DNA from: Patescibacteria group bacterium
GTDB lineage: Bacteria > Patescibacteriota > Patescibacteriia > Patescibacteriales > UBA12465
NCBI GenBank assembly: GCA_023229115.1
Contig: JALNZW010000005.1
Coordinates: forward strand, 23,050-87,049
Direction of reading: 5' to 3'
Length of the DNA: 64,000 nt
Position 1 is the stretch's first letter. Every line of letters starts with the position of its first letter. The position numbers and the translations under genes were made by a program. Below the pieces are notes generated by a model that was not told the DNA's origin, made no database searches, and saw only the letters and a list, made by a program, of their open reading frames with translations. Shown piece after piece: positions 40,189 through 53,916 of the stretch.

Positions 40189-41406
40189 TTATTGAAAAAA
40201 TTGAGATATCCATTCCCAAGCAATATAAGGTGCTAGAAAAAAAGAAATCGGTGGAGTAAGTAACATCATCAAGAAAGCTATTATTATTATAAAAAGATGA
40301 AGAAAGCAGCAACAACCAGTCGCACCTTTTTCAATTACCCCTATTTTATTGCCCATCTCCTTAGCTATTTTAGGAGAAACTTTTTTAATATTGGTCGGAA
40401 CCCATTCTTGCCCTAATTTACAAAACATTTTAGGAGAAACCATTGACAGAAAAGCATGAATATAAACCCAAAAAACAGAAAAAGTTAAGGTAGGAACAGC
40501 ATCCAACCAGGCATTTTTTAAAAGAGTGTCAAAAAAAAGACTCATATCATTTCTTTGCGGTCCTTCGGAAGACTTACTTGAAATCTTAGCTTTGTCTGTT
40601 TTTTCTTTTTTTGATTTATCTTTTCTTTTATCTTCTTCCAGTCTTTGAGAATTGTCCATCTCCTTACCACCCTGTGACTCACTTTTTCCACCCGAAGCTT
40701 GTTCAGTTTCAGATTTTTCTGCATTGCCATCACTTTCTTTCGGCAAGGAATCTGGCATTCTTGATCCCTGTAAACTTTTTGGATCAAAACTTTGAGCGGA
40801 AGAATTACTCTTATCAGGCAAAGAACTATTTGATTTTCCTTTTTCTAAATCTTTTCCTTTTTCGTCTAACTCTTTTTTTAAACTATCATCACCTCTATTT
40901 TCTGATGGTTTAATTTCATTATCAAGTCCTTTCTTATTTTCATCATTTTTATCGGCAGTATCTTTATTTTCAGAGTTTTCATTTTTATCCTTAAGTCCAT
41001 CTAAATTCTCTTGAGCATTGGGATTCTCTGGATTTTCTGGATTCTCTGGATTTTCTGGATTTTCTGGATTTTCTGGATTTTCTGGATTTTCTGGATTTTC
41101 TGGATTTTCTGGATTTTCTGGATTTTTAGAGTCATTCTGATTTTTGTCATTTTTTTTTGCATCCAAACCTCCTTGATTATCTTGAAAGGCTTGCTCTTCA
41201 TTTCCCCCTTTTTTACTATTAGAATTTTCACCAAAGCTTCTGCTTGCGTCTTGGTCTCCAAGGCTTTTATTTTTAGATTCCTGAGCCAAAGAATTGTTGG
41301 AATCTCCAACACTTTTACTAATAGAATCCTTTTCATCTTTTTTAACTTCCGATTCAATTTCTGATTTAATTTTGTCCTCAATTTCTTTATTTATTCCATT
41401 AGCCAT
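40189..41406 (-). CDS. Bipartite protein: low-complexity charged N-terminal region with an (NPE)n repeat, plus a hydrophobic C-terminal membrane domain
   Basis: 405 aa, first gene of the cluster. C-terminus has TM helices and a CCC motif (GATGCCCFLHLFIIIIAFLMMLL). Confidence 0.62.
   Translation of the reverse strand: MANGINKEIEDKIKSEIESEVKKDEKDSISKSVGDSNNSLAQESKNKSLGDQDASRSFGENSNSKKGGNEEQAFQDNQGGLDAKKNDKNQNDSKNPENPENPENPENPENPENPENPENPENPENPENPNAQENLDGLKDKNENSENKDTADKNDENKKGLDNEIKPSENRGDDSLKKELDEKGKDLEKGKSNSSLPDKSNSSAQSFDPKSLQGSRMPDSLPKESDGNAEKSETEQASGGKSESQGGKEMDNSQRLEEDKRKDKSKKEKTDKAKISSKSSEGPQRNDMSLFFDTLLKNAWLDAVPTLTFSVFWVYIHAFLSMVSPKMFCKLGQEWVPTNIKKVSPKIAKEMGNKIGVIEKGATGCCCFLHLFIIIIAFLMMLLTPPISFFLAPYIAWEWISQFFQ
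41021..41119 (-). repeat. In-frame 9-nt tandem repeat, 11 copies (ggattYtct; encodes Asn-Pro-Glu)
   Basis: Eight consecutive perfect ggattttct units, plus three flanking units of which two are the variant ggattctct, counted directly in the sequence. Confidence 0.9.
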
Positions 41407-41513: not shown

Positions 41514-43166
41514 TTAATTTTGGCTCAACTTATTCAATTGTTTGTCTATTTTTTCTGTTTCTATTTTCTGATATAAAACCTCTAAATCACCTACAATAAA
41601 CTTGTCTTTGGCAGGAAATTGCCATTTCAAATCTTCCATTAATAAACTTTTTTTAATCTTAATAGAGGTCTGAGGCAAAAATGGTTCAATCAAAATAGCC
41701 AAAGATTTAATTACAAGCACAAAAGCGGCTAAATTATTAGCTGCCTTTTCTTTGTCGGTTTTAATCATTGTCCAAGGAGCTAGTTCATTAAGAAGACGAT
41801 TACCATCTTCAATTATTTTAAAAACAGAACGAATGGCTTTTTTAAAATTGCCTAGCTCAATTTCCTCTCCTGCTTCAGTAAAGGTATTTTTAGTTAAATC
41901 TAAAAAATTATTTAAACGCTCGTCAATATTTTCAGAAAAATCTAAACCTTCAGGAAAATTTTTCTTAACAAATGACAAAGTCCTAAAAACAAAATTACCA
42001 AAATTACCAATCAACTCATTATTGGTCTTGGCCATATAGTCGGCCCAAGAAAAATTAGCATCAGATGATTCGGGTCCATTTGATACTAGATAATACCTCA
42101 AAGTATCAGAATCAAATTCGGCTAAAAAATCTTTCAACCAAACAGCATGACCTCGACTTTTAGAAAACTGCTTTCCTTCTAAATTTAAATACTCACTAGA
42201 AATAATTCTGTCTGGCAAATGAAGATTGCCATAAGACATTAAAATTGTCGGCAAAATTATAGCATGAAAAGGAATATTATCTTTACCATGAACATAATAA
42301 TGTAAAGCTTCATTGTTTTGCCAAAAATCTTGCCATAAATTCTCGTCTCCTTTATCTTTAGCCCACTCTTTACTAGCTGACAGATAACCTAAAACCGCCT
42401 CAAACCAAACATAAATTCTTTTACTTTCATAGCCGTCGAGCGGAATTGGAACACCCCACTCTGTATCTCTAGTTATGGCCCTATCTAAAAGACCCTGAGC
42501 TACAAATTCACGAGAAAAATTCTTAGCATTTTGTCGCCAAGCAAAACTATCTTCAATAAATTTTAAAATTTTATCTTGCCAAGCTGATAACTTTAGAAAA
42601 AAATGTTCTGTTGTTTTCCACTCTGGAGTGCTACCACAAGTTTTACATTTAGGATTTTTTAATTTTTTAGTTTCCATTAAGTTTCCACAATTATCACACT
42701 GATCACCACGAGCTGAAGAAAAACCACAGATATAACACTCACCCTCAACATATCTATCCGGTAGAAATCTTTGACAATGAGAACAATAAGGAAGCTCCTC
42801 TTCTTTAATATAAATATCGCCCGATTGATAAAGTTTTAAAAACATTTCTTGAACCACTTGTCGATGATTATCAGTTGTTGTTTTAGTATAATTATCATAA
42901 GAAAAAGACAAGCCATTTAAAAAATTATCACTAAATTCAGCGTGATATTTATTAGCTATTTCTGAAGGATGAACGCCTTGCTTATCAGCTTCAACTGCAA
43001 TTGGCGTTCCATGACAATCGCTACCAGAAACAAATAAAACATCATCGCCTTTCAAGCGATAATACCGAGCTAAAACATCACCACCAATTAAACCAGCTAC
43101 ATGCCCCAAATGAAGAGAGCCATTAGCATAAGGCCAAGCAGCTGCCACTAAAACTTTTTTACCCAT
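41514..43166 (-). CDS. metG: Methionyl-tRNA synthetase
   Basis: 550 aa. HIGH-type motif PYANGSLHLGHV, KMSKS-type motif KFSKSRGH, Zn knuckles CSHC...CYICG...CDNCG...CKTCG. Confidence 0.95.
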   Translation of the reverse strand: MGKKVLVAAAWPYANGSLHLGHVAGLIGGDVLARYYRLKGDDVLFVSGSDCHGTPIAVEADKQGVHPSEIANKYHAEFSDNFLNGLSFSYDNYTKTTTDNHRQVVQEMFLKLYQSGDIYIKEEELPYCSHCQRFLPDRYVEGECYICGFSSARGDQCDNCGNLMETKKLKNPKCKTCGSTPEWKTTEHFFLKLSAWQDKILKFIEDSFAWRQNAKNFSREFVAQGLLDRAITRDTEWGVPIPLDGYESKRIYVWFEAVLGYLSASKEWAKDKGDENLWQDFWQNNEALHYYVHGKDNIPFHAIILPTILMSYGNLHLPDRIISSEYLNLEGKQFSKSRGHAVWLKDFLAEFDSDTLRYYLVSNGPESSDANFSWADYMAKTNNELIGNFGNFVFRTLSFVKKNFPEGLDFSENIDERLNNFLDLTKNTFTEAGEEIELGNFKKAIRSVFKIIEDGNRLLNELAPWTMIKTDKEKAANNLAAFVLVIKSLAILIEPFLPQTSIKIKKSLLMEDLKWQFPAKDKFIVGDLEVLYQKIETEKIDKQLNKLSQN

Positions 43167-43323
43167 ATTTAAAGGTTTTTAATACTTATTTATAAGTTAA
43201 TTTTAGCATTTTAAAAAGCTAAAAGCAAGAAAAATATTATATTTTATTTAATTTATTTTTATGCTTTTTAAATTAAAATATAAACAACATTTCTGTTATA
43301 CCTATAAAAAACTTAAGCCCTCA

Positions 43324-43478
43324 CCCCTGTCATCCCAGCGAAAGCTGGGATCCAAATTGTCGCCCTCCTGTCATCCCAGCGAAAACCGGGATCCAAATTG
43401 TCACCCTCCTGTCATCCCAGCGAAAGCTGGGATCCAAATTGTCACCCTCCTGTCATCCCAGCGAAAGCTGGGATCCAG
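43324..43478 (+). repeat. Four tandem 41-nt repeats, each carrying a 7-bp hairpin with a GAAA loop
   Basis: The unit cctgtcatcccagcgaaagctgggatccaaattgtcaccctc recurs at 43326, 43367, 43408 and 43449. One copy has the loop/stem variant gaaaaccggg. Confidence 0.9.
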
Positions 43479-43501
43479 AATTAATAAGTAAAATCAATAC
43501 A

Positions 43502-43801
43502 ATGAACAAAGAACATAATTACTATGTATACATTTTATGTAATAAAAGAAATGGAACTCTATACACAGGAGTAACTAACGGATTATTCAAGAGAACAATT
43601 CAACACAAAATAAATAAAAATAAAAATAGTTTTACTAACAAATACAAAGTTAACAAGCTAGTATACTACGAAAAACATCAATATATATTAGAGGCTATAA
43701 ATAGAGAAAAAAATATAAAAGCTTGGAAAAGAAAATGGAAATTAGAATTAATAGAAAAACATAATCCAACTTGGTTGGACTTATTTTCTGAGATGGAATA
43801 A
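43502..43801 (+). CDS. GIY-YIG nuclease superfamily protein (UPF0213 type)
   Basis: YYVYILCNKRNGTLYTGVTNGLFKRTIQHK ... NREKNIKAWKRKWKLELIE. Start taken at ATG 43502; the upstream part of the tracked ORF is read-through of the repeats. Confidence 0.85.
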   Translation: MNKEHNYYVYILCNKRNGTLYTGVTNGLFKRTIQHKINKNKNSFTNKYKVNKLVYYEKHQYILEAINREKNIKAWKRKWKLELIEKHNPTWLDLFSEME

Positions 43802-43813
43802 TTATTGTTCAAA

Positions 43814-44088
43814 GGTGTCAACCCTGGATTCCAGCTTTCGCTGGAATGACAGTACGATTCAATTTTCAGGAGAGCAACCTGGATTCCAGCTTTCGCTGGA
43901 ATGACAGAAGGCTCAAGTTTAGCTGGGATGACAGAGGGTTCTAAATACCAACTTTCACTATAATAAAGGTGATCTAGACTCCAGCTTTCGCCACGTAAAA
44001 CGTGACTCGCTGGGATGACAGAATTAAAAAACCAATCCCAGGATCCAGTTTACTTACCCGCCCTAAACATGGCACCAGGATGACAGGG
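43814..44088 (-). repeat. Inverted-orientation array of the same hairpin repeat (two good copies and three degenerate or interrupted ones)
   Basis: ctggattccagctttcgctggaatgacag occurs at 43824-43852 and 43879-43907. A half copy sits at 43921-43939, a copy with an inserted mini-hairpin at 43975-44021, and a degenerate copy at 44034-44088. Confidence 0.8.
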
Positions 44089-44120
44089 AAAAAGAAAAAA
44101 CCCGCACTTGATTGTGCGGG
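44086..44120 (-). terminator. Rho-independent terminator of the T9SS-CTD gene
   Basis: On the minus strand: cccgcac-aatcaag-tgcggg followed by ttttttcttttt. Confidence 0.7.
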
Positions 44121-44139
44121 TTCGGCTTTTGTGAGGAGT

Positions 44140-45387
44140 TTATTTTTTAATAAACTTTTTAACTCCTCGGCCATCGGAGGTTTGAATTTTTAGCATATAC
44201 ATCCCCGTGGGTAAAGACGAAATGTCTAAATTTTCGGTGTTACTGTTAAAATTAAAATCCATTACCTGAGCTCCAATAACATTATAAACAGCCCCTTTGG
44301 CAGAATTAATTGGACTGTTTGGGAGTTGTAAATAAATGTTATCAGTAGCGGGATTGGGGTAAAGCTTAACTTCTGATGAAATATCATTAATGCCATCAAC
44401 TGAATTGGTAGAATCTGGTTTTATTTCATACATAATTCCTCCATAACAGGAAAGAAACAAGCGACCAGTTTCTTTTTCAAAAAAACCATCCATAACGCTT
44501 GTCACAGGATACTCTCCATAACCAGGATAAGAATCCATTAAATCAGTCGCTACACCCGTGCTAACTTTCAAATGTTTAATCCCCAGGTTACTGTAAATAA
44601 AAACATTATCATTGTCCTTGACAACAATATTCATGCCACCACAACCATCAAGGGTATAAATTTTATCCAATTGGGAGTCAGTATCGTTCCAACGATACAA
44701 ATAACCCTCGTCAGTTGGAATAAAAAAGGTTTCCAAATCAACGGAATGAATTTCTTTAGCCCATCCTTTATCTAGATCAAAAGATGCTATCTCCTGAATT
44801 GAGCTTCCATTATAACGAAAAAGTTTGTTTATAGCCATGTAATTACCTTCACCCCCCATGGAACCAAGAATTAAAACATTGTTTTCATTAATAACAAAGC
44901 AATGCTGGAAACCAACCTCATTGTTTATAGCCAGTTCTGTAAAATTACTTGAACCATCCCATAAATAAAGAGCGGAATTATCGTAAGTGCAAATATAAAT
45001 CTTATTTTCTGAATAAACAAATGTAGCACTAGGAGATTGTATTGGAGATGAATAAAAATCCCAAGCTTTATCATTATCATCCCAAAGATAAGATTTATAA
45101 GCAGTGCTAAAGCTGGCAAAAATTTCTCCACCAGTTTTAGTAAAAGCATGCATCTGACCCCACTGATTAGAGTTAGGAATTTGAACCCCGCCCCATTGAC
45201 TGCCATTGTAGTAAAGTCCTTCACCGGTGGTAAAAGCTAAAATTTCTTCACCGGAAACAAAAATGTTAGTAAATACACTTATCCCAGTTTCATGAATTTT
45301 ATCTAAATAAAATTCCTGGGAAAAAACAGTAAAGCTTAAGCTCATCAGCCCAAAAGCTAACAACAAAGTAATCATCAATTTTTTCAT
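44140..45387 (-). CDS. Secreted repeat (probable beta-propeller) protein with a T9SS/Por C-terminal sorting domain
   Basis: Signal peptide MKKLMITLLLAFGLMSLSFTVFSQ. Recurring L-[YF]-x-[WY]-[ND]-G blades. C-terminus VKLYPNPATDNIYLQL...LPTGMYMLKIQTSDGRGVKKFIKK matches the TIGR04183-type CTD pattern. GGAGGA SD 7 nt upstream. Confidence 0.8.
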   Translation of the reverse strand: MKKLMITLLLAFGLMSLSFTVFSQEFYLDKIHETGISVFTNIFVSGEEILAFTTGEGLYYNGSQWGGVQIPNSNQWGQMHAFTKTGGEIFASFSTAYKSYLWDDNDKAWDFYSSPIQSPSATFVYSENKIYICTYDNSALYLWDGSSNFTELAINNEVGFQHCFVINENNVLILGSMGGEGNYMAINKLFRYNGSSIQEIASFDLDKGWAKEIHSVDLETFFIPTDEGYLYRWNDTDSQLDKIYTLDGCGGMNIVVKDNDNVFIYSNLGIKHLKVSTGVATDLMDSYPGYGEYPVTSVMDGFFEKETGRLFLSCYGGIMYEIKPDSTNSVDGINDISSEVKLYPNPATDNIYLQLPNSPINSAKGAVYNVIGAQVMDFNFNSNTENLDISSLPTGMYMLKIQTSDGRGVKKFIKK

Positions 45388-45474: not shown

Positions 45475-48400
45475 TTAATTACAAGTCGGCAAAGCACCTT
45501 TGATGTCGTCTTCATTGCATTTTCCCGGATTCAAATTATCACAAGCAACTGAAAAAGGATTTTCAAAATAAGCGGTAGTCTCTGGAGAAAACAAAGAACC
45601 ACAACAATATCTATAACAAGAATCGGAAATATTAGCAAAGACACCCATACCCGCACATTTAAAGAAATTCCAATTATCAATAACTTTAATAAGCACCATA
45701 TATTGTCCGGGAGACAAGAATTTAACCAAACGATGAGGGTTTGATTGATCCGGACGATGGTCAATATTACTTAAAACAATGCTGTTTTGACTCCAATCTT
45801 CATCTACTTTTTTTATTTTAATATACAACTTCTTGATTGGTCCTTGCTCACCATCAACAAAGGTATTGAAAGATAAAGTATAAAAACCACCAGCAACTAT
45901 ATTATAAACATTAGAAGGAACACCATCACCGTTATCAATTTGATTTATCGGTCCATTAGGCCCACTCATTTTAACATTTTCAATTTGAGGATAAATAGCA
46001 CAAAGAGCTTTATCATTTTCACGTGGAGGACAACCATCACCACAAGGATCAGCTGCATCCTTGAAAGGCGGAGAATTGCCGGCATCAGCTAGGTGTGAGT
46101 AATTAACATAATCAAACTTTGCAAAAATATTCTTTAAAGCCGTCACAACAGTCATTCCAGTGCCATAATTATCAGAATATCTTTGATTTGTGTGTACAGA
46201 AAAATCATTACTAAATTTAATTTTTCCGGTGTCAGTATCATAATAAAGAGACTCACAGGAATTTTTATAAGCAGCCCCTGAATTAGTATAAATAGCGTTA
46301 CCTAGACCAGAACAAGAATAAGGCAGACCATAAAGGGAGTCATCTCCTAGCTTATTAACATAAACATTAACATTATCTCCCGGTCTAACAGTTGAATTAA
46401 TAGCACCAAAAGGAGCATTCTTTGAACCTAAGGTATAGTAAGTAAAATAAAAAGGTAAAGAAGTGGCGTATTCTTTCAAATTATAAGATGAGGACTTTAA
46501 TCTCTCTACCCAAGGAACCTCACCTTGGATAATAACATTACACTTAGGAGTGTAATTTTCTGGATCCATCAAACAAGCACCGTTTCGAAGATCGCCTTCT
46601 CCACCAAAACCTGCTGTACATTTACTTAAAGGACAAGAATCATTTCCACTGCCTGTTGGAAAAAATTCTGTGTTATCACCATAAATGCCACTATCACACT
46701 CTCTTTCGGTTAAATTGTAAGCCAAAATTTTAAGACCATTTTTTATTTCTGGACTTTCCGGATTGCTAGAATTCATACTATGTATACCATCTGATTTATA
46801 CCAACCAGCACCAACACTTGGAACCAAGTGCTTGCTAGTATTAGAACACTCAAAATGATCATTACACCTAGCACCATTAGGAGTATAAGGGTCTAATGTC
46901 ACTGGATAAGAGCCATAAGCTGGGCCATCACAAGTGCCTCTGTTAGCATTTCGATTGGAAATTAAACTTTGACTATGAATAGAATTTCCAACCACAGATA
47001 TTATTCTATTATTTAAAAGATCACTCCTTGGTTCCATCCACTGAAAAGAAACCCAAGCACATCGTTCCCAGGAACAAGCTATATTACCACCATCAGGATA
47101 ATCAAAATCATCTATACAATCTCTAACATCACTCCTAGTAACACCGCTAGTTGTGCTACTATATTTGCCTTTACTTTCATAAACATTATAGTTTATATCG
47201 GGATAATTAACTACACTACTATTAGCTATAGAAATAAATTTTCTATTATAAGTTGAATTATCACAACTGTCATTGCAAGAATACCAATGCCTTGAGTGAT
47301 AACCAATATCATCATCCTCTTGATCAGCAAAAAACACATCTCTATACTCAACTAAATCAAATTTAGCATTCATGCTAGCACAATAAGAAGGACTGCTTCC
47401 AGTTGAGGGATAACCAGAAAAATTAGTAGACAAAGTGTCATTACTACTACCAACAACCGAATCAACTGGATACCACATCAAACAAACATTTTCATTTAAA
47501 GGATCTTTCTCTAAACAATAACCCTCCCAACCCTGCTCAACAAAACTATAACCTTTAGTATCACTAGAACAAGAAATACTATCTTGCTTAGGGTATAGCC
47601 TACAAGAAGCTGGGATATAATTTTCTTCACCTGCTTCTAAGACAGGCTCAATGTTAATATCATCTACATACATCCAACCATTGACACCGCTGTCTGATGG
47701 CCCTAAAACTATTTTTGACCCACCGACCCAAGAAGAATCAGTTCTAAATTTAAAGGTAACTCTCTGCCAATCTTTTTTACTAACATCAACCATCAAATCT
47801 ACAGAATTCAAATCTGTCTCTTCATCATTTAAATCAAGTCCTACAATCTTTCCTAAAGATATCTTGTCTGTATCTTGTTGAGGATAACTTAAATTAGCTG
47901 TATTTATTAAAAAATTAATAAAATAATCTGTTTGAATTGAAGTTGGAATTTCATTAGACTTAAAATTCCATTCACAAGAATTACCACCAATTCTAATAAA
48001 ACCAAAATTAGAAGGGGAAGGATAAACGGGACGACCTGGCGTAGCCTCTTCACTAAGAGTGTCAGCAGACTTTAAAATAAGACAGCTATTATTAATACTA
48101 GATCCAGAGCTTTCCCAAGAAATTAAATCTGGTGAATTTTCAAAATCATTTTCAAACACAGAAGAATTCCCCCTTTGAATCATGGCATCAAAATAATAAT
48201 GGTTAAGAAGTGAATAACCGCTGACATTAGCATCCTTTGCAGAATCAAAACCTCTATTACCAGGAATTGATTTTGAAAAATTCAAACAATTACCACTAGA
48301 ATCCATGGAAGTACATTGACCTATTTGTAAACAAACATTTTTATCGTTTCCTTTTTCATCTTTTTCAGTAGTGTAAGAATAACAAGACAACCATTTACCA

Positions 48401-51400
48401 CAAACCCTGTCTGGGCTAACTTTAATAATTTTATTAGCATCTTTATAGTCACTATCCTTAGAAGGATTATATTTATCATAATTACTAGAGTCATAAGTCA
48501 ATCCACTATAGTTAGGGTAATCACCAAGAACAGTCCTTTCGTTAAACAAAATACAACCCCTATTAAACTCTGGGAAGTTACAAGTAGAAAAGTCTAGGTT
48601 ATTTTTTATCTTATAGTCAACAATCAACTCTCTCCACTCTAAAGAAATGTCATTAATTCTAGTTGTTGGACTTATTTCAATTACCAACTCACAGTCATTT
48701 GACAAATTGTTAGCTGAGTAAAAAATAAACTTAGAAGCATAAATAGGAGAATATTGCGCTAATGGCTGAATGTTATAAAAAGAAGAGCCTGGAATAAAAT
48801 TTAAAATATTAGCTGAATTTAACTCATAAAAAGGATTCTCACATTTAACTCTTAGACTTCTTATGTTCTTATACTCCACAGAATAAAGCTTATTTGGCTC
48901 TAGGAAATAATTTGATTGTTTAAAATAATAAGACGAACTTGTTTGAGTGCAAGATATTTGATCATTATTATTAACTGAACATTGCTGACCAGGTACATTG
49001 GTTTTACCATTAGCTGCTACTGGTGACCAACCATCAAAATAAACACCATCGTCATCAATATCAGAAAAATTAGAATTAGAAATTAAATTAGGATTAAAAG
49101 AACTTTCTGGATCTATATATTCAGTACAACTAGAATCTTTTAAAGGACAAAGACCAGACCAATTAACACTACCAGTTTGGTGATTAGGCAGACCGACAGT
49201 TTGGTAATAAGGTTGACTAACCAATGCTCCTTCGTTTCCAATAGTTTTTATAATACCATAATTAGAATCAACCGAGCACAGATAATTAGTTTCGTCCAAC
49301 TTACAAACCCTTCCATTTAAACAATCAGAATCAGAATTACAAGGATCTGGCAAAGAACTAATTGGCATATCAGCCTCAAAAATTTGATTAGGCAGCAAAC
49401 ATCTTTTTACTTTTTTAACATACCATTTATTATCTACAAGCTGACAAACGTTATCCATTGGATCTTTAAAATAGCTATCTCCAGCTGAAGATGACCAAGA
49501 ATCACAGCCAATAGCCTCTTCAGCGCAAAGTATACCCTGGTCGTATTTATCAGGATTATTTTTAAGATAAATATTTTGATAAACATAACTGGAAGAAAGA
49601 GAGTAAACATTGGAAACGGCCTTCCCCAAAAGAGAACATCCCTTATCAGCTGCATTACAAATTTTGGCATTATCATAAACAACCAAAGAAAAATTATCTC
49701 TCGGAATTTGAACACAATCTTTAGAATCAACAGGACAAGACTTTAAATCATTTCCCAAGTTTCCTGACAAGAAAAGATTACTTTCTTTAGGGGTGGAATT
49801 GTGAGTATCAATCATCAGTTCACAGCCAACGGCCGATTCATCACACAATTTGGTAAACTGCCTTAAATAATGTTTGTTATTAGAACGATCTAAATAAGCC
49901 GAGCAACCCAAATTGTAATTTGCACCCTGATATTTGGAAGTTTGATCGTAGTAACAAATATTAGGAGTTTTCCAAGAGTTTTTAATTAAATAATACCTGT
50001 TGGCTGACTCAGATAAAATTAAATCATCAATATAAACAATGTTAGTGCTAGTATTTTTGATAACAATTTTTTCACCAGAATCGATATCATGATTTAATTC
50101 GTCTAAGGAAATTCTGTAAACCTGCCAAGCAGAACCTTTTATAGAAATATTATTAACACTCTCTCCATTTACAGGACTTATAGTTTTAAAGTTAGATATA
50201 TCACCCTTTGAATTTATAAAATAAATTTCCAAATCAGAACTAATGTCAATATTCTTGTCAGTATTCTTGCCATGATTTCTGGCCAAGAAACTTAACAAGT
50301 ACGGCCTTCCTTTTACTAATCCAGAAATAGACCTATTAGACTCAGATGATGGATTTATTCTCATTGATCTTCCATTGTTGCTTAGGGAGGTTTCAGAGCT
50401 TACTCCACCTTGCCAGCCGGAGACATCTTGTTCAAAATCATATGAAGTAACAATCCTAACATTGCTAGCTGTATTTCCTCCATATTCACGACAATAATTT
50501 TCAGAAGAGGAACAGGATTTTCCCTCGCCAGGAATAGCTTTATAGACACAAGCTTGCTGTCCTTCATCCCAAATTCCACCATTTAAACAATGAAAACAAA
50601 CAAAGCCATCAACAGAGTCACTAATCTCATAATCATCTACGGTAGCAGTCGCCCACTTAGCAACAACCTTGCCACTAGCATTTAGATTAGAGCATTCAGT
50701 GGCTTCAGTAATATCTTTGTTTATATTTCTCTCCGTCATTCTATAAAGCGTACATTTATCAGAACAAGTTATAGTTTTTGAATATAAAACATAAAAAATA
50801 TCACCTGCCTGATTATACATTTCTCTACAATCTGAACTGTATCTAGGATTAGAGGGGTTTAATTTTATTATTTCACTACTACAAACATCGACTCCGCCAA
50901 TTATATGCTTATAAGAACCACCATCAGAAAATAAATTTCCTTCAGTTAAAGAGGGTTGGGAATTCTTAATTGACAAATTAAACGATCTTAATTGATATCC
51001 GCTTTCATCATTTCCCTCCCAAGAATAAAAACTAGAACAAGTTCCTTCATTTGGTTTTATACATTGTCTTAGATAAGAATAATATTCGACTCTCTCTCCT
51101 CCACTAGATAAGTCTTCTAAGTTTGTAAACTCTGTACAACCAGCACTATTGGCTGAACATTTTTTAGCTGTAGTTGGTATAAGTCTGTGCGGCGAATCAC
51201 TTTCAAATATGGTAGATTTTTGGATATAAACATTGTAACCATCACACTCAGCTGGACAATAATCTTTGTCCATAGCTTTGGCTGGAATATTTCTACCATC
51301 AGCCATCTTAAATAAATCACAACCAAGTTCATTAAAATTACAAAGTCGAGCATAACGATAACATTCGGCTGGAGCATTAGATTTTAAAGTAAAATTAGGG

Positions 51401-53916
51401 TTAGTGGTAGAATAAGGATCTGTATAACAAGCTTCTTTTAAATAATCTGGAATTGTTTTAATATAAACCAAGCCATCACCTCTATAATCAGAATAAAAAG
51501 TACCAACAGCACCTTTCTCTAATTTTAGTTGATCAAAAGAACACTGAGCATTGGAGCCAACATTTATTTTGAAAACAACATCAGAACCAATTTGACTATC
51601 AGAATAAGAATAGGAAACACTTTGATAAGAAAAATCATTAGAAGGAGGAATTGTTTTATAATCAGCGACAGACATATCAGCTATAGAAGCGGTTGAAGTG
51701 GCTGTACACTTAGCATAAAAAGAAAGAGTAAAGGTCTCTCCTTTTAAAAAGTTATTATCTGGACCAATTGAGGCTAGTCCACTTAAAACATCACCACTTT
51801 CCAATACCAAACCACGACTACCATCATAACCAACACTATCTTTAATTTTCCCCTCACTAAAATAAGACTCCCAACCTTCATCAGATTCAAAATTTCCATT
51901 TGTTATAAAATTATGACCAAAACCAGATTTAGTTCTAATAAATTCATTACATCCCTCAGAACCAGATGAACAATTTTCTGCCTTTCTGTTTAAGTTTATT
52001 AGATTGTCAGAATTCCAAAAAACCTTAGCATTCTTAATATCATAAGAACCAAAGGTAGAGTATATACTACAACCAGCATTACTAGCATCACAAGGACTAT
52101 ATTGAATAGTATTTTTAAGTAAAGCTAATTTTTTACCAGAATAATTTTTAAAAGACTCACAAGTATTAAAAACAGCTGGACAAGAATCACTATTAAAATT
52201 CCAAGTTCTTTTTTCCTCAGTACAGTATCCATAAAATTGACAAGACCCGTCTCCAGCCTCTTTAACGCAAGATCTCTCATCGGCACAATAAGAATCACTT
52301 CTAACCACAAGTATTTCTTCACTGCCTTCACTTATAATATTACCATCACCATCTTTGGTTTCTGGTGTAGAAATAGTCTGAGTTGATAAAATATGTCCAC
52401 CATAACCCTGACGAGCACAATAATTCATTGGAGCTTTTAATACCCAGTGAGGGTCAACCAAGCCACGGCACCAAGTCATTTCACTTGCATTATTTGGATC
52501 ATGCGGAAAGTTTTTACTGAATTGATTATATTCATCATCATCACTAAAACAAGAAAGCATATCCATAATAGTGTATTGACCAGAATTAGATTTTTGAAGA
52601 GGTGTAATTCTATTTAAAGCCTCTTCCCAAGCTATAGGCACTATGCGAAATTTTCTTAAAATCATTAAGGACCTCCTGTTTAAGGTTCTTTGATAATCAC
52701 CTTTTTCTGAAAAAAGTAAACCAGCTGAAATCGAACCACCTTCAATAGCTTCTATTAAGGTGTTTTTATTTTCAATTGCCCTACCAAAAGACTGACCAAT
52801 AACACAATTATTTGGACCACTGTAATTATTTTCACTATTACAAATCATTAACTCTGCTAAAATACTATAATCAGTTTTTTCCGTAAATTTTGGAGTTAAA
52901 ACTTTCTTTAAAGTTTCTGACAACCCTGCTCTTGTATATAAGGAAGATGGGTCAACTTCAGAAGAAGCTACATCAGAATAACCAAATGGACTAGTTACCT
53001 CATCTTCACCAAACCAACTATAAGAACCTTCAGAATAAGATTTCAAAAGCGAATTAATTGTCGACAACAAAAGTTGATTAGAAAAAATATTAACAGCATC
53101 AACAAAAATATCACCAGTGGTTTGACCAAAGGTTTTAGTGGCCAAATCTCTAGTTTGATCTACCTCCCCTTCTATAGCCCCTGGGACAGATTCTTGTTTA
53201 CCACCAATACTTCGAACATCCAACCAGCCTTTATTAAACGTTAGTTGAGTTTCCACTTTTTCTTTTTCCTCATTTCCTTTTTCTAAAATTTTATCCAACA
53301 AACTCATAGTTATGCCAATGTCACTGGCAGCTGGATCAATTGAAGCAACAATCTGGTCTAAAAATTTTTTAGGATCTTTTGCATAAGACTCCCATCTATC
53401 AAATTCACTTTTCCAACCATCTTTCATTTGTTGCCAACCACAACTAGGCTCAACTGGTCGATAATTATGAGTTAAACCAAGACCAATTTTAGTTTTAATA
53501 TTTATATTAGGCTCACAAAAATTAAAATCCCACTCTTCACCTAAAAGATCTAAAGCCTCTCCAATAGCTGCATCTCTAATATTATCACCATATTTTGTCC
53601 AATAATCAGTTTCCCAGGTTGGCTTTTGACCACCTATTCCTGTTCCTAAATAAACAGCCCCATCATAAGCCAAGGTAAATAAAGAAGATTTTAAAGCTGA
53701 CTGAAACATGTTAGCACCCATTTTAACCAAAAATTTATCTTTATTTTTTTCTACCCAATCAGTAACCTTTCTAACAACAGCCACTGGACCACCTATTATA
53801 TCAGAAAAAGCCTGAGCCTTAGTTGGAAAAAAAGAAAAACTAAACACAAAAGAAAATAATAAAAAAAACAAAACGCCTTTCTTGAACTTCGACTGAGTAG
53901 AATTATTGTTAGTCAT
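45475..53916 (-). CDS. Giant (2813 aa) secreted Cys-rich modular protein
   Basis: Single uninterrupted ORF. Signal peptide ...FFPTKAQA. At least nine C-x5-(G)C-x-[EDSL]-[FYLMW] motifs. Four N-x-x-F-E/S...W module starts (NGNFESDEGW, YDFEQDVSGW, NSNFSDIDDDGVYFDGW, FENDFENSPDLISW). Confidence 0.85.
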   Translation of the reverse strand: MTNNNSTQSKFKKGVLFFLLFSFVFSFSFFPTKAQAFSDIIGGPVAVVRKVTDWVEKNKDKFLVKMGANMFQSALKSSLFTLAYDGAVYLGTGIGGQKPTWETDYWTKYGDNIRDAAIGEALDLLGEEWDFNFCEPNINIKTKIGLGLTHNYRPVEPSCGWQQMKDGWKSEFDRWESYAKDPKKFLDQIVASIDPAASDIGITMSLLDKILEKGNEEKEKVETQLTFNKGWLDVRSIGGKQESVPGAIEGEVDQTRDLATKTFGQTTGDIFVDAVNIFSNQLLLSTINSLLKSYSEGSYSWFGEDEVTSPFGYSDVASSEVDPSSLYTRAGLSETLKKVLTPKFTEKTDYSILAELMICNSENNYSGPNNCVIGQSFGRAIENKNTLIEAIEGGSISAGLLFSEKGDYQRTLNRRSLMILRKFRIVPIAWEEALNRITPLQKSNSGQYTIMDMLSCFSDDDEYNQFSKNFPHDPNNASEMTWCRGLVDPHWVLKAPMNYCARQGYGGHILSTQTISTPETKDGDGNIISEGSEEILVVRSDSYCADERSCVKEAGDGSCQFYGYCTEEKRTWNFNSDSCPAVFNTCESFKNYSGKKLALLKNTIQYSPCDASNAGCSIYSTFGSYDIKNAKVFWNSDNLINLNRKAENCSSGSEGCNEFIRTKSGFGHNFITNGNFESDEGWESYFSEGKIKDSVGYDGSRGLVLESGDVLSGLASIGPDNNFLKGETFTLSFYAKCTATSTASIADMSVADYKTIPPSNDFSYQSVSYSYSDSQIGSDVVFKINVGSNAQCSFDQLKLEKGAVGTFYSDYRGDGLVYIKTIPDYLKEACYTDPYSTTNPNFTLKSNAPAECYRYARLCNFNELGCDLFKMADGRNIPAKAMDKDYCPAECDGYNVYIQKSTIFESDSPHRLIPTTAKKCSANSAGCTEFTNLEDLSSGGERVEYYSYLRQCIKPNEGTCSSFYSWEGNDESGYQLRSFNLSIKNSQPSLTEGNLFSDGGSYKHIIGGVDVCSSEIIKLNPSNPRYSSDCREMYNQAGDIFYVLYSKTITCSDKCTLYRMTERNINKDITEATECSNLNASGKVVAKWATATVDDYEISDSVDGFVCFHCLNGGIWDEGQQACVYKAIPGEGKSCSSSENYCREYGGNTASNVRIVTSYDFEQDVSGWQGGVSSETSLSNNGRSMRINPSSESNRSISGLVKGRPYLLSFLARNHGKNTDKNIDISSDLEIYFINSKGDISNFKTISPVNGESVNNISIKGSAWQVYRISLDELNHDIDSGEKIVIKNTSTNIVYIDDLILSESANRYYLIKNSWKTPNICYYDQTSKYQGANYNLGCSAYLDRSNNKHYLRQFTKLCDESAVGCELMIDTHNSTPKESNLFLSGNLGNDLKSCPVDSKDCVQIPRDNFSLVVYDNAKICNAADKGCSLLGKAVSNVYSLSSSYVYQNIYLKNNPDKYDQGILCAEEAIGCDSWSSSAGDSYFKDPMDNVCQLVDNKWYVKKVKRCLLPNQIFEADMPISSLPDPCNSDSDCLNGRVCKLDETNYLCSVDSNYGIIKTIGNEGALVSQPYYQTVGLPNHQTGSVNWSGLCPLKDSSCTEYIDPESSFNPNLISNSNFSDIDDDGVYFDGWSPVAANGKTNVPGQQCSVNNNDQISCTQTSSSYYFKQSNYFLEPNKLYSVEYKNIRSLRVKCENPFYELNSANILNFIPGSSFYNIQPLAQYSPIYASKFIFYSANNLSNDCELVIEISPTTRINDISLEWRELIVDYKIKNNLDFSTCNFPEFNRGCILFNERTVLGDYPNYSGLTYDSSNYDKYNPSKDSDYKDANKIIKVSPDRVCGKWLSCYSYTTEKDEKGNDKNVCLQIGQCTSMDSSGNCLNFSKSIPGNRGFDSAKDANVSGYSLLNHYYFDAMIQRGNSSVFENDFENSPDLISWESSGSSINNSCLILKSADTLSEEATPGRPVYPSPSNFGFIRIGGNSCEWNFKSNEIPTSIQTDYFINFLINTANLSYPQQDTDKISLGKIVGLDLNDEETDLNSVDLMVDVSKKDWQRVTFKFRTDSSWVGGSKIVLGPSDSGVNGWMYVDDINIEPVLEAGEENYIPASCRLYPKQDSISCSSDTKGYSFVEQGWEGYCLEKDPLNENVCLMWYPVDSVVGSSNDTLSTNFSGYPSTGSSPSYCASMNAKFDLVEYRDVFFADQEDDDIGYHSRHWYSCNDSCDNSTYNRKFISIANSSVVNYPDINYNVYESKGKYSSTTSGVTRSDVRDCIDDFDYPDGGNIACSWERCAWVSFQWMEPRSDLLNNRIISVVGNSIHSQSLISNRNANRGTCDGPAYGSYPVTLDPYTPNGARCNDHFECSNTSKHLVPSVGAGWYKSDGIHSMNSSNPESPEIKNGLKILAYNLTERECDSGIYGDNTEFFPTGSGNDSCPLSKCTAGFGGEGDLRNGACLMDPENYTPKCNVIIQGEVPWVERLKSSSYNLKEYATSLPFYFTYYTLGSKNAPFGAINSTVRPGDNVNVYVNKLGDDSLYGLPYSCSGLGNAIYTNSGAAYKNSCESLYYDTDTGKIKFSNDFSVHTNQRYSDNYGTGMTVVTALKNIFAKFDYVNYSHLADAGNSPPFKDAADPCGDGCPPRENDKALCAIYPQIENVKMSGPNGPINQIDNGDGVPSNVYNIVAGGFYTLSFNTFVDGEQGPIKKLYIKIKKVDEDWSQNSIVLSNIDHRPDQSNPHRLVKFLSPGQYMVLIKVIDNWNFFKCAGMGVFANISDSCYRYCCGSLFSPETTAYFENPFSVACDNLNPGKCNEDDIKGALPTCN

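Follow-up and report, generated by a model that had tools for sequence, protein, structure and literature searches.

The window, a 64-kb stretch of DNA from a Patescibacteria group bacterium, carries a 973-nt intergenic region between metG (41514–43166, minus strand; Pfam tRNA-synt_1g, E 2.8e-147) and a gene encoding a Por_Secre_tail protein (44140–45387, minus strand). Within this region a short plus-strand gene, ssn, encodes a GIY-YIG nuclease and is flanked on both sides by arrays of a hairpin repeat. The locus very probably represents an Ssn-SRM module, in which an endonuclease of the Ssn family lies between arrays of the motif that it recognises, the Ssn-related motif (SRM). This kind of system has been known since 2025 (Chenal et al. 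2025, Nat Commun 16:2388, PMC11893778), and the locus is one more member of it. The window is the main subject here, and loci from other genomes are labelled with L-numbers. The features of the region are listed in Table 1.

Table 1. Features of the ssn cassette and its outer boundary (positions are those of the window)
Feature	Positions	Strand	Basis
Whole cassette, 865 bp: AT-rich leader, upstream SRM array, ssn, downstream SRM arrays	43235..44099		Alignment with empty alleles
AT-rich leader within the cassette, 91 nt	43235..43325	+	Missing from empty alleles; first ~35 nt homologous to the start of the L003 insert
SRM unit 1, hairpin at 43332-43351	43326..43366	+	Fold -8.6 kcal/mol, z -3.9
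SRM unit 2, degenerate, 3′ arm ACCGGGA, stem broken	43367..43407	+	2 mismatches; fold -2.4 kcal/mol, z 0
SRM unit 3	43408..43448	+	Tandem-repeat and consensus searches
SRM unit 4, without trailing spacer	43449..43478	+	Fits the published SRM pattern at 43451-43478
ssn gene, 99-aa single-domain GIY-YIG nuclease, Ssn family	43502..43801	+	PF01541, E 2.9e-13; SsnA homology
Downstream SRM d1, minus-strand sense CTGTCATTCCAGCGAAAGCTGGAATCCAGG	43823..43852	-	Fold -9.3 kcal/mol, z -4.3
Downstream SRM d2, stem variant as d1, 55 nt from d1	43878..43907	-	Consensus and pattern matches
Half copy, 5′ half of SRM: CCTCTGTCATCCCAGCTAAA	43918..43937	-	Repeat search
Decayed copy	43941..43969	-	72% repeat-family match
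SRM variant with nested mini-hairpin in the loop, minus-strand sense GTCATCCCAGC-GA-GTCACGTTTTACGTGGC-GAAA-GCTGGA	43974..44021	-	Fold -8.4 kcal/mol, z -2.6
Decayed terminal copy, outer end ...CCAGGATGACAGGG conserved with L042	44037..44088	-	Sequence comparison
Terminator of the neighbouring Por_Secre_tail gene, outer boundary, outside the cassette	44098..44123		Present in empty and filled alleles

The ssn gene and its flanking hairpin arrays

The GIY-YIG domain (PF01541) covers residues 6–81 of the window protein, which has no other domain and no added DNA-binding domain; no NCBIfam model matches it. By BLASTP it is 48% identical over 90 aa (E 7e-29) to the 94-aa SsnA orthologue of N. gonorrhoeae, a match far beyond the criterion of E<1e-10 by which homologues were defined by Chenal et al., and residues Y6, Y17 and E64 of SsnA correspond to Y10, Y21 and E69, all of which are conserved. 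The gonococcal orthologue (L041:1525-1809) was identified by its length, by Y6/Y17/E64 and by its canonical flanks of NTS, the Neisseria counterpart of the SRM. The source of both the orthologue and the NTS sequences was a pair of 2.17-Mb N. gonorrhoeae chromosomes that are filed as plasmids in PLSDB (NZ_CP119140.1 and NZ_CP119142.1). An earlier reading of the locus, made from the sequence only, had placed the protein in UPF0213. This label does not hold: BH0048 (PDB 1zg2), the sole UPF0213 protein of solved structure, is the best match among solved structures, at an insignificant E of 0.087 (16.8 bits). Between the window and its sister strain L042 (MetRS 97% identical), which also carries ssn, the gene shows 14 synonymous and 2 non-synonymous differences (pN/pS 0.03), and it is under strong purifying selection.

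The version of the gene called by gene prediction (P0001, 120 aa) begins inside a repeat. Most homologues are 94–104 aa long once repeat-encoded extensions are discounted, while many family entries in databases (P0001, P0027, P0042, P0057, P0088 and others) are 120–157 aa, since the predicted reading frames begin or stop within the hairpin repeats. P0088, for example, has LSFQRKLESRK at its N-terminus and AWIPAFAGMTK at its C-terminus. The sequence-only reading had named VIPAKAGIQ and WIPAFAGMT as spurious extensions on such genes, correctly so, and both peptides are encoded by the repeats. The recurrent pseudo-peptides of database entries include CHPSESWDP, SVIPGLTRNPE, LSFQRKLESRK, WIPAFAGMT and GFQLSLE; a literature search for the repeat-encoded peptides found no mention of them. 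Many family members lie on contigs shorter than 2 kb, as would be expected if assemblies break at the arrays.

The upstream array (43326–43482) is by far the strongest of its kind in the window (Tandem Repeats Finder: period 41 nt, 3.8 copies, 94% matches, score 284). Each unit consists of CTGTC, the hairpin ATCCCAGC-GAAA-GCTGGGAT and a C. The sequence-only reading had given four copies of exact period; the period and the count stand, with three corrections. Copy 1 has a variant spacer, copy 4 ends directly after the hairpin, and in copy 2 two substitutions turn the 3′ arm from GCTGGGA into ACCGGGA and destroy the hairpin. Folded as single-stranded DNA (ssDNA), the intact units reach -8.6 to -9.3 kcal/mol (z about -4), with -8.6 (z -3.9) for those of the upstream array. 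The array spacers (43351–43366 and equivalents, 13–16 nt) read CCAAATTGTCACCCTC and contain TTGTCAC, which resembles the CTGTCAT leading into the motif; a second half-site, left over from the duplication by which the array arose, may be its origin. A CRISPR-like array was considered and rejected, as the 13-nt spacers are the same between units, i.e., a plain tandem duplication.

The downstream copies read on the minus strand. Two are perfect, as the sequence-only reading had it; the remainder, which it counted as three decayed copies, comprises one half copy, two decayed copies and one with a nested mini-hairpin. The paired, stem-preserving change that it reported between the arrays is real (upstream TCCCAGC/GCTGGGA, downstream TTCCAGC/GCTGGAA). 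All six matches to the consensus with up to three mismatches in the 64 kb lie at this locus, with none expected from 100 shuffles, and a looser search (GTCWY followed by a perfect stem of at least 6 bp) added no further copy in the window. A permissive E-value search of 42500–45000 against Rfam returned no family for the repeats, and the sole weak match, Leu_leader, is the terminator of the neighbouring gene. The AT-rich leader probably holds the ssn promoter; a promoter scan gave three matches against 3.6 expected, and so was not above chance.

In L042 the upstream array has three units compared to the four of the window, a difference of exactly one 41-nt unit. The missing unit spans the mutated 3′ arm of window copy 2, and all three stems of L042 are intact. 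Downstream, L042 has four intact copies where the window has two plus decayed ones, and all four carry the upstream-type stem, so the paired change of the window is strain-specific and common to its two copies. Turnover is much faster in the arrays than in the gene. In L003 (Candidatus Falkowbacteria HGW-Falkowbacteria-1; Ssn 73% and MetRS 78% identical, full length), ssn lies at the same site with stems TTCCCGC/GCGGGAA, and a nested mini-hairpin, GA-[GCCACGTnnnACGTGGC]-GAAA, is found on both sides of the gene (-15.8 kcal/mol, z -5.7). The nested copy of the window, taken earlier for an interruption, is therefore a conserved variant and not an accident.

The SRM pattern and covariation of the hairpin stem

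Members of the Ssn family are single-domain GIY-YIG proteins of about 94 aa (cd10448, GIY-YIG_unchar_3). According to the main text of PMC11893778, SsnA of N. meningitidis binds its NTS repeat, CGTCATTCCCGCGMAVGCGGGAATCYRG, only as ssDNA and only in that strand, and cleaves a few nucleotides upstream of it, with no action on duplex DNA or RNA; mutation of Y6, Y17 or E64 abolishes cleavage. For Neisseria SsnA, cleavage depends critically on the three nucleotides that precede the palindrome, and binding on the C that follows it; structure alone is insufficient, and sequence also matters (PMC11893778). The same text reports at least one SRM in the flanks of 71% of homologous genes, and on both sides in 42%. 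The Neisseria system lowers the integration of NTS-bearing transforming DNA and adjoins variable membrane-protein genes (PMC11893778).

The repeats of the window share the determinants of the NTS. Written as 5′ flank, stem, loop, stem and 3′ flank, the window repeat is GTCAT, CCCAGC, GAAA, GCTGGG, ATCC and the Neisseria NTS is GTCAT, TCCCGC, GMAV, GCGGGA, ATCY. In every intact copy in the window, GTC precedes the palindrome and C follows it. The published SRM pattern, HGTCWYN(0-2)YYVSBRHN(0-5)WNVSBRGN(0-2)RNCYNB (PMC11893778), matches the window only at 43451-78 (+), 43824-51 (-) and 43879-906 (-), that is, once upstream and twice downstream of ssn, and gave no match in 30 dinucleotide shuffles. 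By manual reading, the last degenerate base of the pattern is the only mismatch in copies 1 and 3, and copy 2 departs from it in the mutated 3′ arm as well.

When one genome of each species was scanned, 40 loci that encode relatives were obtained, from Patescibacteria, Gamma-, Beta- and Alphaproteobacteria, Acidobacteria and others. SRM density was 1.63 per kb within 300 bp of the gene, 0.04 per kb at 0.3–1 kb, 0.047 per kb at 1–3 kb and 0.018 per kb at 3–10 kb, i.e., about 35–90 times denser within 300 bp than farther away, and unrelated metG loci (543 kb) gave 0.0018 per kb. The check proposed in the sequence-only reading, that the repeats co-localise with GIY-YIG genes, was thus positive. 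Orientation was biased in the same sense as in the window, with upstream copies mostly on the plus strand (13:5) and downstream copies mostly on the minus strand (16:4), so that most face outward.

For the analysis of covariation, sequences near the genes were selected solely on their anchors (GTCAT and A[TC]C, with 16 free bases between), which avoids circularity, and 35 distinct sequences were obtained. Of the alignment cells in the stem, 94.3% were paired compared to 79.1% after shuffling, none of 500 shuffles reached the observed value, and slid controls were 15–48% paired. Double changes occur in six of the seven stem pairs, and variation is greatest at the pair (U-A 14, C-G 13) that differs between the two arrays of the window. 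The stem is maintained by covariation across the family, which bears out the earlier argument, drawn from that single pair, that the hairpin itself is under selection.

Two marine TARA contigs (L122 and L123, 1794–2310) have the same Ssn protein and context, with a downstream length difference of 198 bp; the extra sequence of the longer allele contains an added hairpin copy. The hairpins of these contigs have 17-nt loops, GTCATCCCTGA-N17-TCAGGGACCC, and are missed by the published SRM pattern. The published association figures are probably underestimates, because such long-loop copies escape the search pattern. A viral contig (IMGVR_UViG_3300032401_002140, 55.8 kb, ~41% G+C; L140 and L142) carries at least four SRM copies on one strand, three with the exact core GTCATTCCAGCGAAAGCTGGAATCC and one with TCCGGC/GCCGGA, and has no ssn gene in the stretches examined. 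Same-strand SRMs in a phage genome could bear on ssDNA targeting. In the viral contigs as a whole the exact motif was found in only five stretches, none with an ssn gene and all of other G+C content, and these matches say nothing about the host of the window.

Filled and empty alleles among related genomes

MetRS relatives served to locate the corresponding neighbourhood in other genomes. The cassette is present in L042 (MetRS 97%) and L003 (78%), and is absent from eight related lineages: L143 and L144 (94%), L145 (92%), L146 and L147 (86%), L148 and L149 (86%), L150 (82%), L151 and L152 (77%), L045 (77%), and L153 (71%). Empty-site alleles, which the sequence-only reading had proposed to look for, therefore exist in related genomes. 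Most of the empty lineages preserve the gene order giant protein, Por_Secre_tail protein, metG, although the Por_Secre_tail gene of L150 is called on the other strand, and their intergenic region is only 101–141 nt long. In none of the eight was ssn detected by tblastn, nor was there any trace of the motif in the intergenic region.

Nucleotide alignment with the relatives of 86–94% MetRS identity defines the difference as the 865 bp of the cassette. Empty alleles read GCAAGAAATAAAAAACCCG, then the terminator, with nothing between, and the filled allele reads GCAAGAAAAA|TATTATATTTT... at its left junction and ...GATGACAGGGAAAAAGAAAAAACCCG at its right. An 8-nt sequence, AAGAAAAA, is found at both ends of the cassette (43227–43234 and 44092–44099); it is of low complexity and part of an A-run. 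Similar A-rich direct repeats (AAATAA-like) occur in L003 near 9785 and 10390, and the empty alleles have a single copy before the terminator. With L151 as the empty reference for L003, the flanking repeat is only 4–5 nt long. As a candidate target-site duplication AAGAAAAA was not called, given its low complexity, the A-run at the junction and the shrinkage with L151.

The flanks of the cassette are mosaic. Relative to L143, MetRS is 93.6% identical, the Por_Secre_tail protein 36% and the C-terminus of the giant protein 51%. A tree of one marker, MetRS, does not polarise gain against loss, because these genomes recombine and the internal branches are short. Next to the cassette lie the Por_Secre_tail gene, with a T9SS-type sorting domain, and the gene for the giant protein (45475–53916, minus strand; 2813 aa); their order is conserved in relatives and they are therefore not recent imports. 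On the other side of metG is the gene for an ENP-repeat protein (40189–41406, minus strand; 405 aa) with a perfect (ENP)x12 run and a hydrophobic C-terminus. The run is encoded by a tandem repeat at 41021–41126 (9-nt unit GGATTTTCT, 11.8 copies, 96% matches). This protein is unusually variable, being 88% identical to that of L143 and 68% to that of the sister strain L042. The extreme divergence of the Por_Secre_tail and giant-protein alleles suggests that the surface-protein region is hypervariable and that a recombination breakpoint lies close to the ssn site. We treat the cassette as a resident Ssn-SRM module that can be gained or lost whole, possibly by homologous recombination of its flanks.

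Predicted activity, alternative explanations and known systems

By homology with the characterised enzymes of Neisseria and Wolbachia, the window protein would bind 5′-GTC-[AT-stem]-GAAA-[stem-AT]-C only as a hairpin extruded from ssDNA, and in the sense strand only, on occasions when single strands arise, such as uptake, replication, recombination or transcription bubbles. It would nick a few nucleotides 5′ of GTCAT and leave duplex DNA and RNA uncut. The sense strand is plus upstream and minus downstream, and the predicted cuts would face outward at both edges of the cassette, on opposite strands; along the tandem array a cut would be expected once per 41 nt. The top of the stem-loop, d(GCGAAAGC), is a known, unusually stable DNA mini-hairpin, which fits a substrate at the DNA level. 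In the cell, cutting of SRM-bearing single strands during uptake, recombination or replication might modulate recombination at the locus. Specificity for ssDNA, the position of the cut and the role in the cell are inferred from the homologous enzymes, and the last of these is the weakest step of the explanation.

Some observations weigh against assigning the locus to the Ssn-SRM system. The protein is only 48% identical to the nearest characterised enzyme, in a family whose homologues differ in specificity (PMC11893778). A role in transformation has been shown in Neisseria only, whose genome has hundreds of dispersed sites. In the 64 kb of the window the motif occurs only in the flanks of the gene, and for this reason a genome-wide role is doubtful. 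Sense and antisense hairpins are nearly equally stable (ViennaRNA, DNA parameters), and strand specificity is not evident from folding. A locus-restricted role, either gating recombination at the border or protecting and propagating the cassette, is more likely than genome-wide control, because the motif is not dispersed here even though hypervariable surface-protein genes adjoin it. A further proposal, possible but held only tentatively, is that the cassette is a discrete unit gained and lost whole at the A-tract before the terminator, either by nuclease-dependent events at the outward-facing hairpins or by nuclease-biased recombination, and that the only genomic targets of the nuclease are the borders of its own cassette. 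If true, the cassette would be a self-bounded element, selfish or recombination-gating, that borders a hypervariable surface-protein region, and not a genome-wide regulator of transformation as in Neisseria.

The module reading overlaps with the idea that the cassette is, or was, an autonomous IS-like or homing-like element, its nuclease acting at the terminal hairpins to drive excision and insertion as in IS200/IS605 or RAYT/REP. The clean absence of an 865-bp unit from eight lineages, its presence at the same junction in the window, L042 and the distant L003, the outward-facing terminal hairpins and the flanking A-rich direct repeats would all suit such an element. So would the closeness of Gammaproteobacterial Ssn proteins (64–67% identity to the window) compared to those of other Patescibacteria (Saccharibacteria 52%, Doudnabacteria 48%), the identity of the SRM core in Betaproteobacterial and Saccharibacteria loci, and the many homologues on very short contigs. 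We nevertheless regard this as unlikely. There is only one copy in 64 kb, and identical proteins of two other species, on 22–24 contigs, are always found in one genomic context, with only the array lengths differing. The purifying selection on ssn indicates host-level or long-term selection. Active mobility of the selfish kind suggested in the sequence-only reading is not supported. The identity of Ssn between the window and L003 is not above that of MetRS, which argues against recent transfer between these lineages. On the left, the breakpoint is not at the first hairpin but 91 nt farther out, and the direct repeat is of low complexity and shrinks with another reference. GIY-YIG enzymes hydrolyse DNA without a covalent intermediate, so that strand transfer is impossible for them alone, and in a neighbourhood that is a mosaic of recombination, homologous recombination by itself can explain a patchy distribution.

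Two further explanations were considered. In the first, the repeats act in RNA and not as DNA substrates; they would be GNRA-tetraloop hairpins in untranslated parts of the nuclease transcript, with a function as stabilisers, attenuators or terminators. In its favour, the upstream copies are sense-oriented between a possible promoter region and the start codon, and their RNA would fold into C-GAAA-G tetraloops. The downstream copies are antisense to the gene, however, and their RNA loop would be UUUC; no copy has a T-tract, and a terminator scan found none at the repeats. Furthermore, the Rfam search gave no family for them, the conserved non-palindromic flanks (GTC and C) are determinants of DNA recognition, and Neisseria SsnA neither binds nor cuts RNA of the same sequence (PMC11893778), leaving an RNA function very improbable. 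There is still less to be said for an ordinary housekeeping protein of the UPF0213/YhbQ type that happens to sit among unrelated REP-like repeats, an idea suggested by the best solved-structure match and by the family label given in the sequence-only reading. That match is insignificant beside the one to SsnA, the repeats occur only here in the window, and they are enriched 35–90 times beside homologous genes in other phyla; its probability is close to negligible.

The Ssn-SRM reading agrees with the earlier idea of a nuclease with its own cognate hairpin sites, a relationship demonstrated experimentally for the homologous system, from which it is carried over by analogy to the window (PMC11893778). 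The accompanying statement that no formal description existed is outdated: the main text of that paper describes the NTS-ssnA-NTS layout, which its authors liken to insertion sequences (IS) and RAYT/REP. The locus adds one more pair of nuclease and site, extends the Ssn family to Patescibacteria, and offers two stem variants, a broken copy and a nested variant that could act as built-in controls of specificity. It also gives sequence-level evidence for gene and hairpins as one unit of insertion or deletion, which the main text of PMC11893778 only hypothesises, the filled and empty states occurring in relatives whose MetRS proteins are up to 94% identical, and bears on whether NTS-ssn-NTS is a domesticated mobile element. 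These array features and alleles add modestly to the published picture, and the understanding of the system is unchanged. To our knowledge, no other site-specific nucleases act exclusively on ssDNA as the Ssn family does, and each of its members has its own recognition hairpin.

Among known systems, UPF0213/YhbQ proteins (BH0048) are small, stand-alone GIY-YIG proteins of similar length, but the similarity is marginal and the family has no known association with flanking hairpins. GIY-YIG homing endonucleases (I-TevI, Seg) share the domain and the presence or absence of the gene as an insertion between conserved genes; they have a separate DNA-binding domain, cut duplex DNA and reside in introns and phages, whereas the window protein is a bare 99-aa domain. 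A phage collection contained a single weak match to it. A homing endonuclease was rejected, since there is no second domain and the site is chromosomal and intergenic, between metG and a surface-protein gene. Insertion sequences and miniature inverted-repeat transposable elements have several copies in a genome, terminal inverted repeats exactly at their ends and clear target-site duplications; at this locus there is a single copy in 64 kb, a left breakpoint outside the hairpins and the low-complexity AAGAAAAA, and identical homologues elsewhere occupy one context. REP/RAYT (REPtrons) and IS200/IS605 resemble the cassette in that the gene for a hairpin-specific ssDNA enzyme lies within inverted cognate palindromes whose copy number changes fast. 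They differ in that the window enzyme is a GIY-YIG hydrolase and not an HUH/Y1 transposase, with no covalent strand-transfer chemistry, and in that the repeats are not dispersed in the 64 kb; no HUH/Y1 transposase lies between the palindromes, the sole gene of the cassette being that of the GIY-YIG protein. The Neisseria dRS3 element (ATTCCC-N8-GGGAAT) is the palindromic core of the NTS, equivalent to ATCCCAGC-GAAA-GCTGGGAT in the window. It is defined without oriented flanks and is tied to phage integration and recombination, unlike the handful of copies at a single locus seen here.

Compared to Ssn/NTS itself, the host is a Falkowbacteria-like member of the Patescibacteria, a group that the main text of PMC11893778 does not mention, and the stem is CCCAGC or TCCAGC and not TCCCGC. 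The window has exact-period tandem arrays (41 and 55 nt) that are apparently confined to the flanks of the gene, in contrast to the hundreds of dispersed copies in Neisseria, and its nested-hairpin variant, like the long-loop variants of relatives, escapes the published pattern. Filled and empty alleles of the whole cassette are seen here and are not reported in the main text of PMC11893778. What the two systems have in common is a single-domain GIY-YIG protein of ~95–100 aa, 48% identical, with the catalytic Tyr, Tyr and Glu kept, a hairpin repeat flanked by the non-palindromic GTCAT...ATC, copies of that repeat to either side of the gene, and a location next to genes for variable surface proteins.

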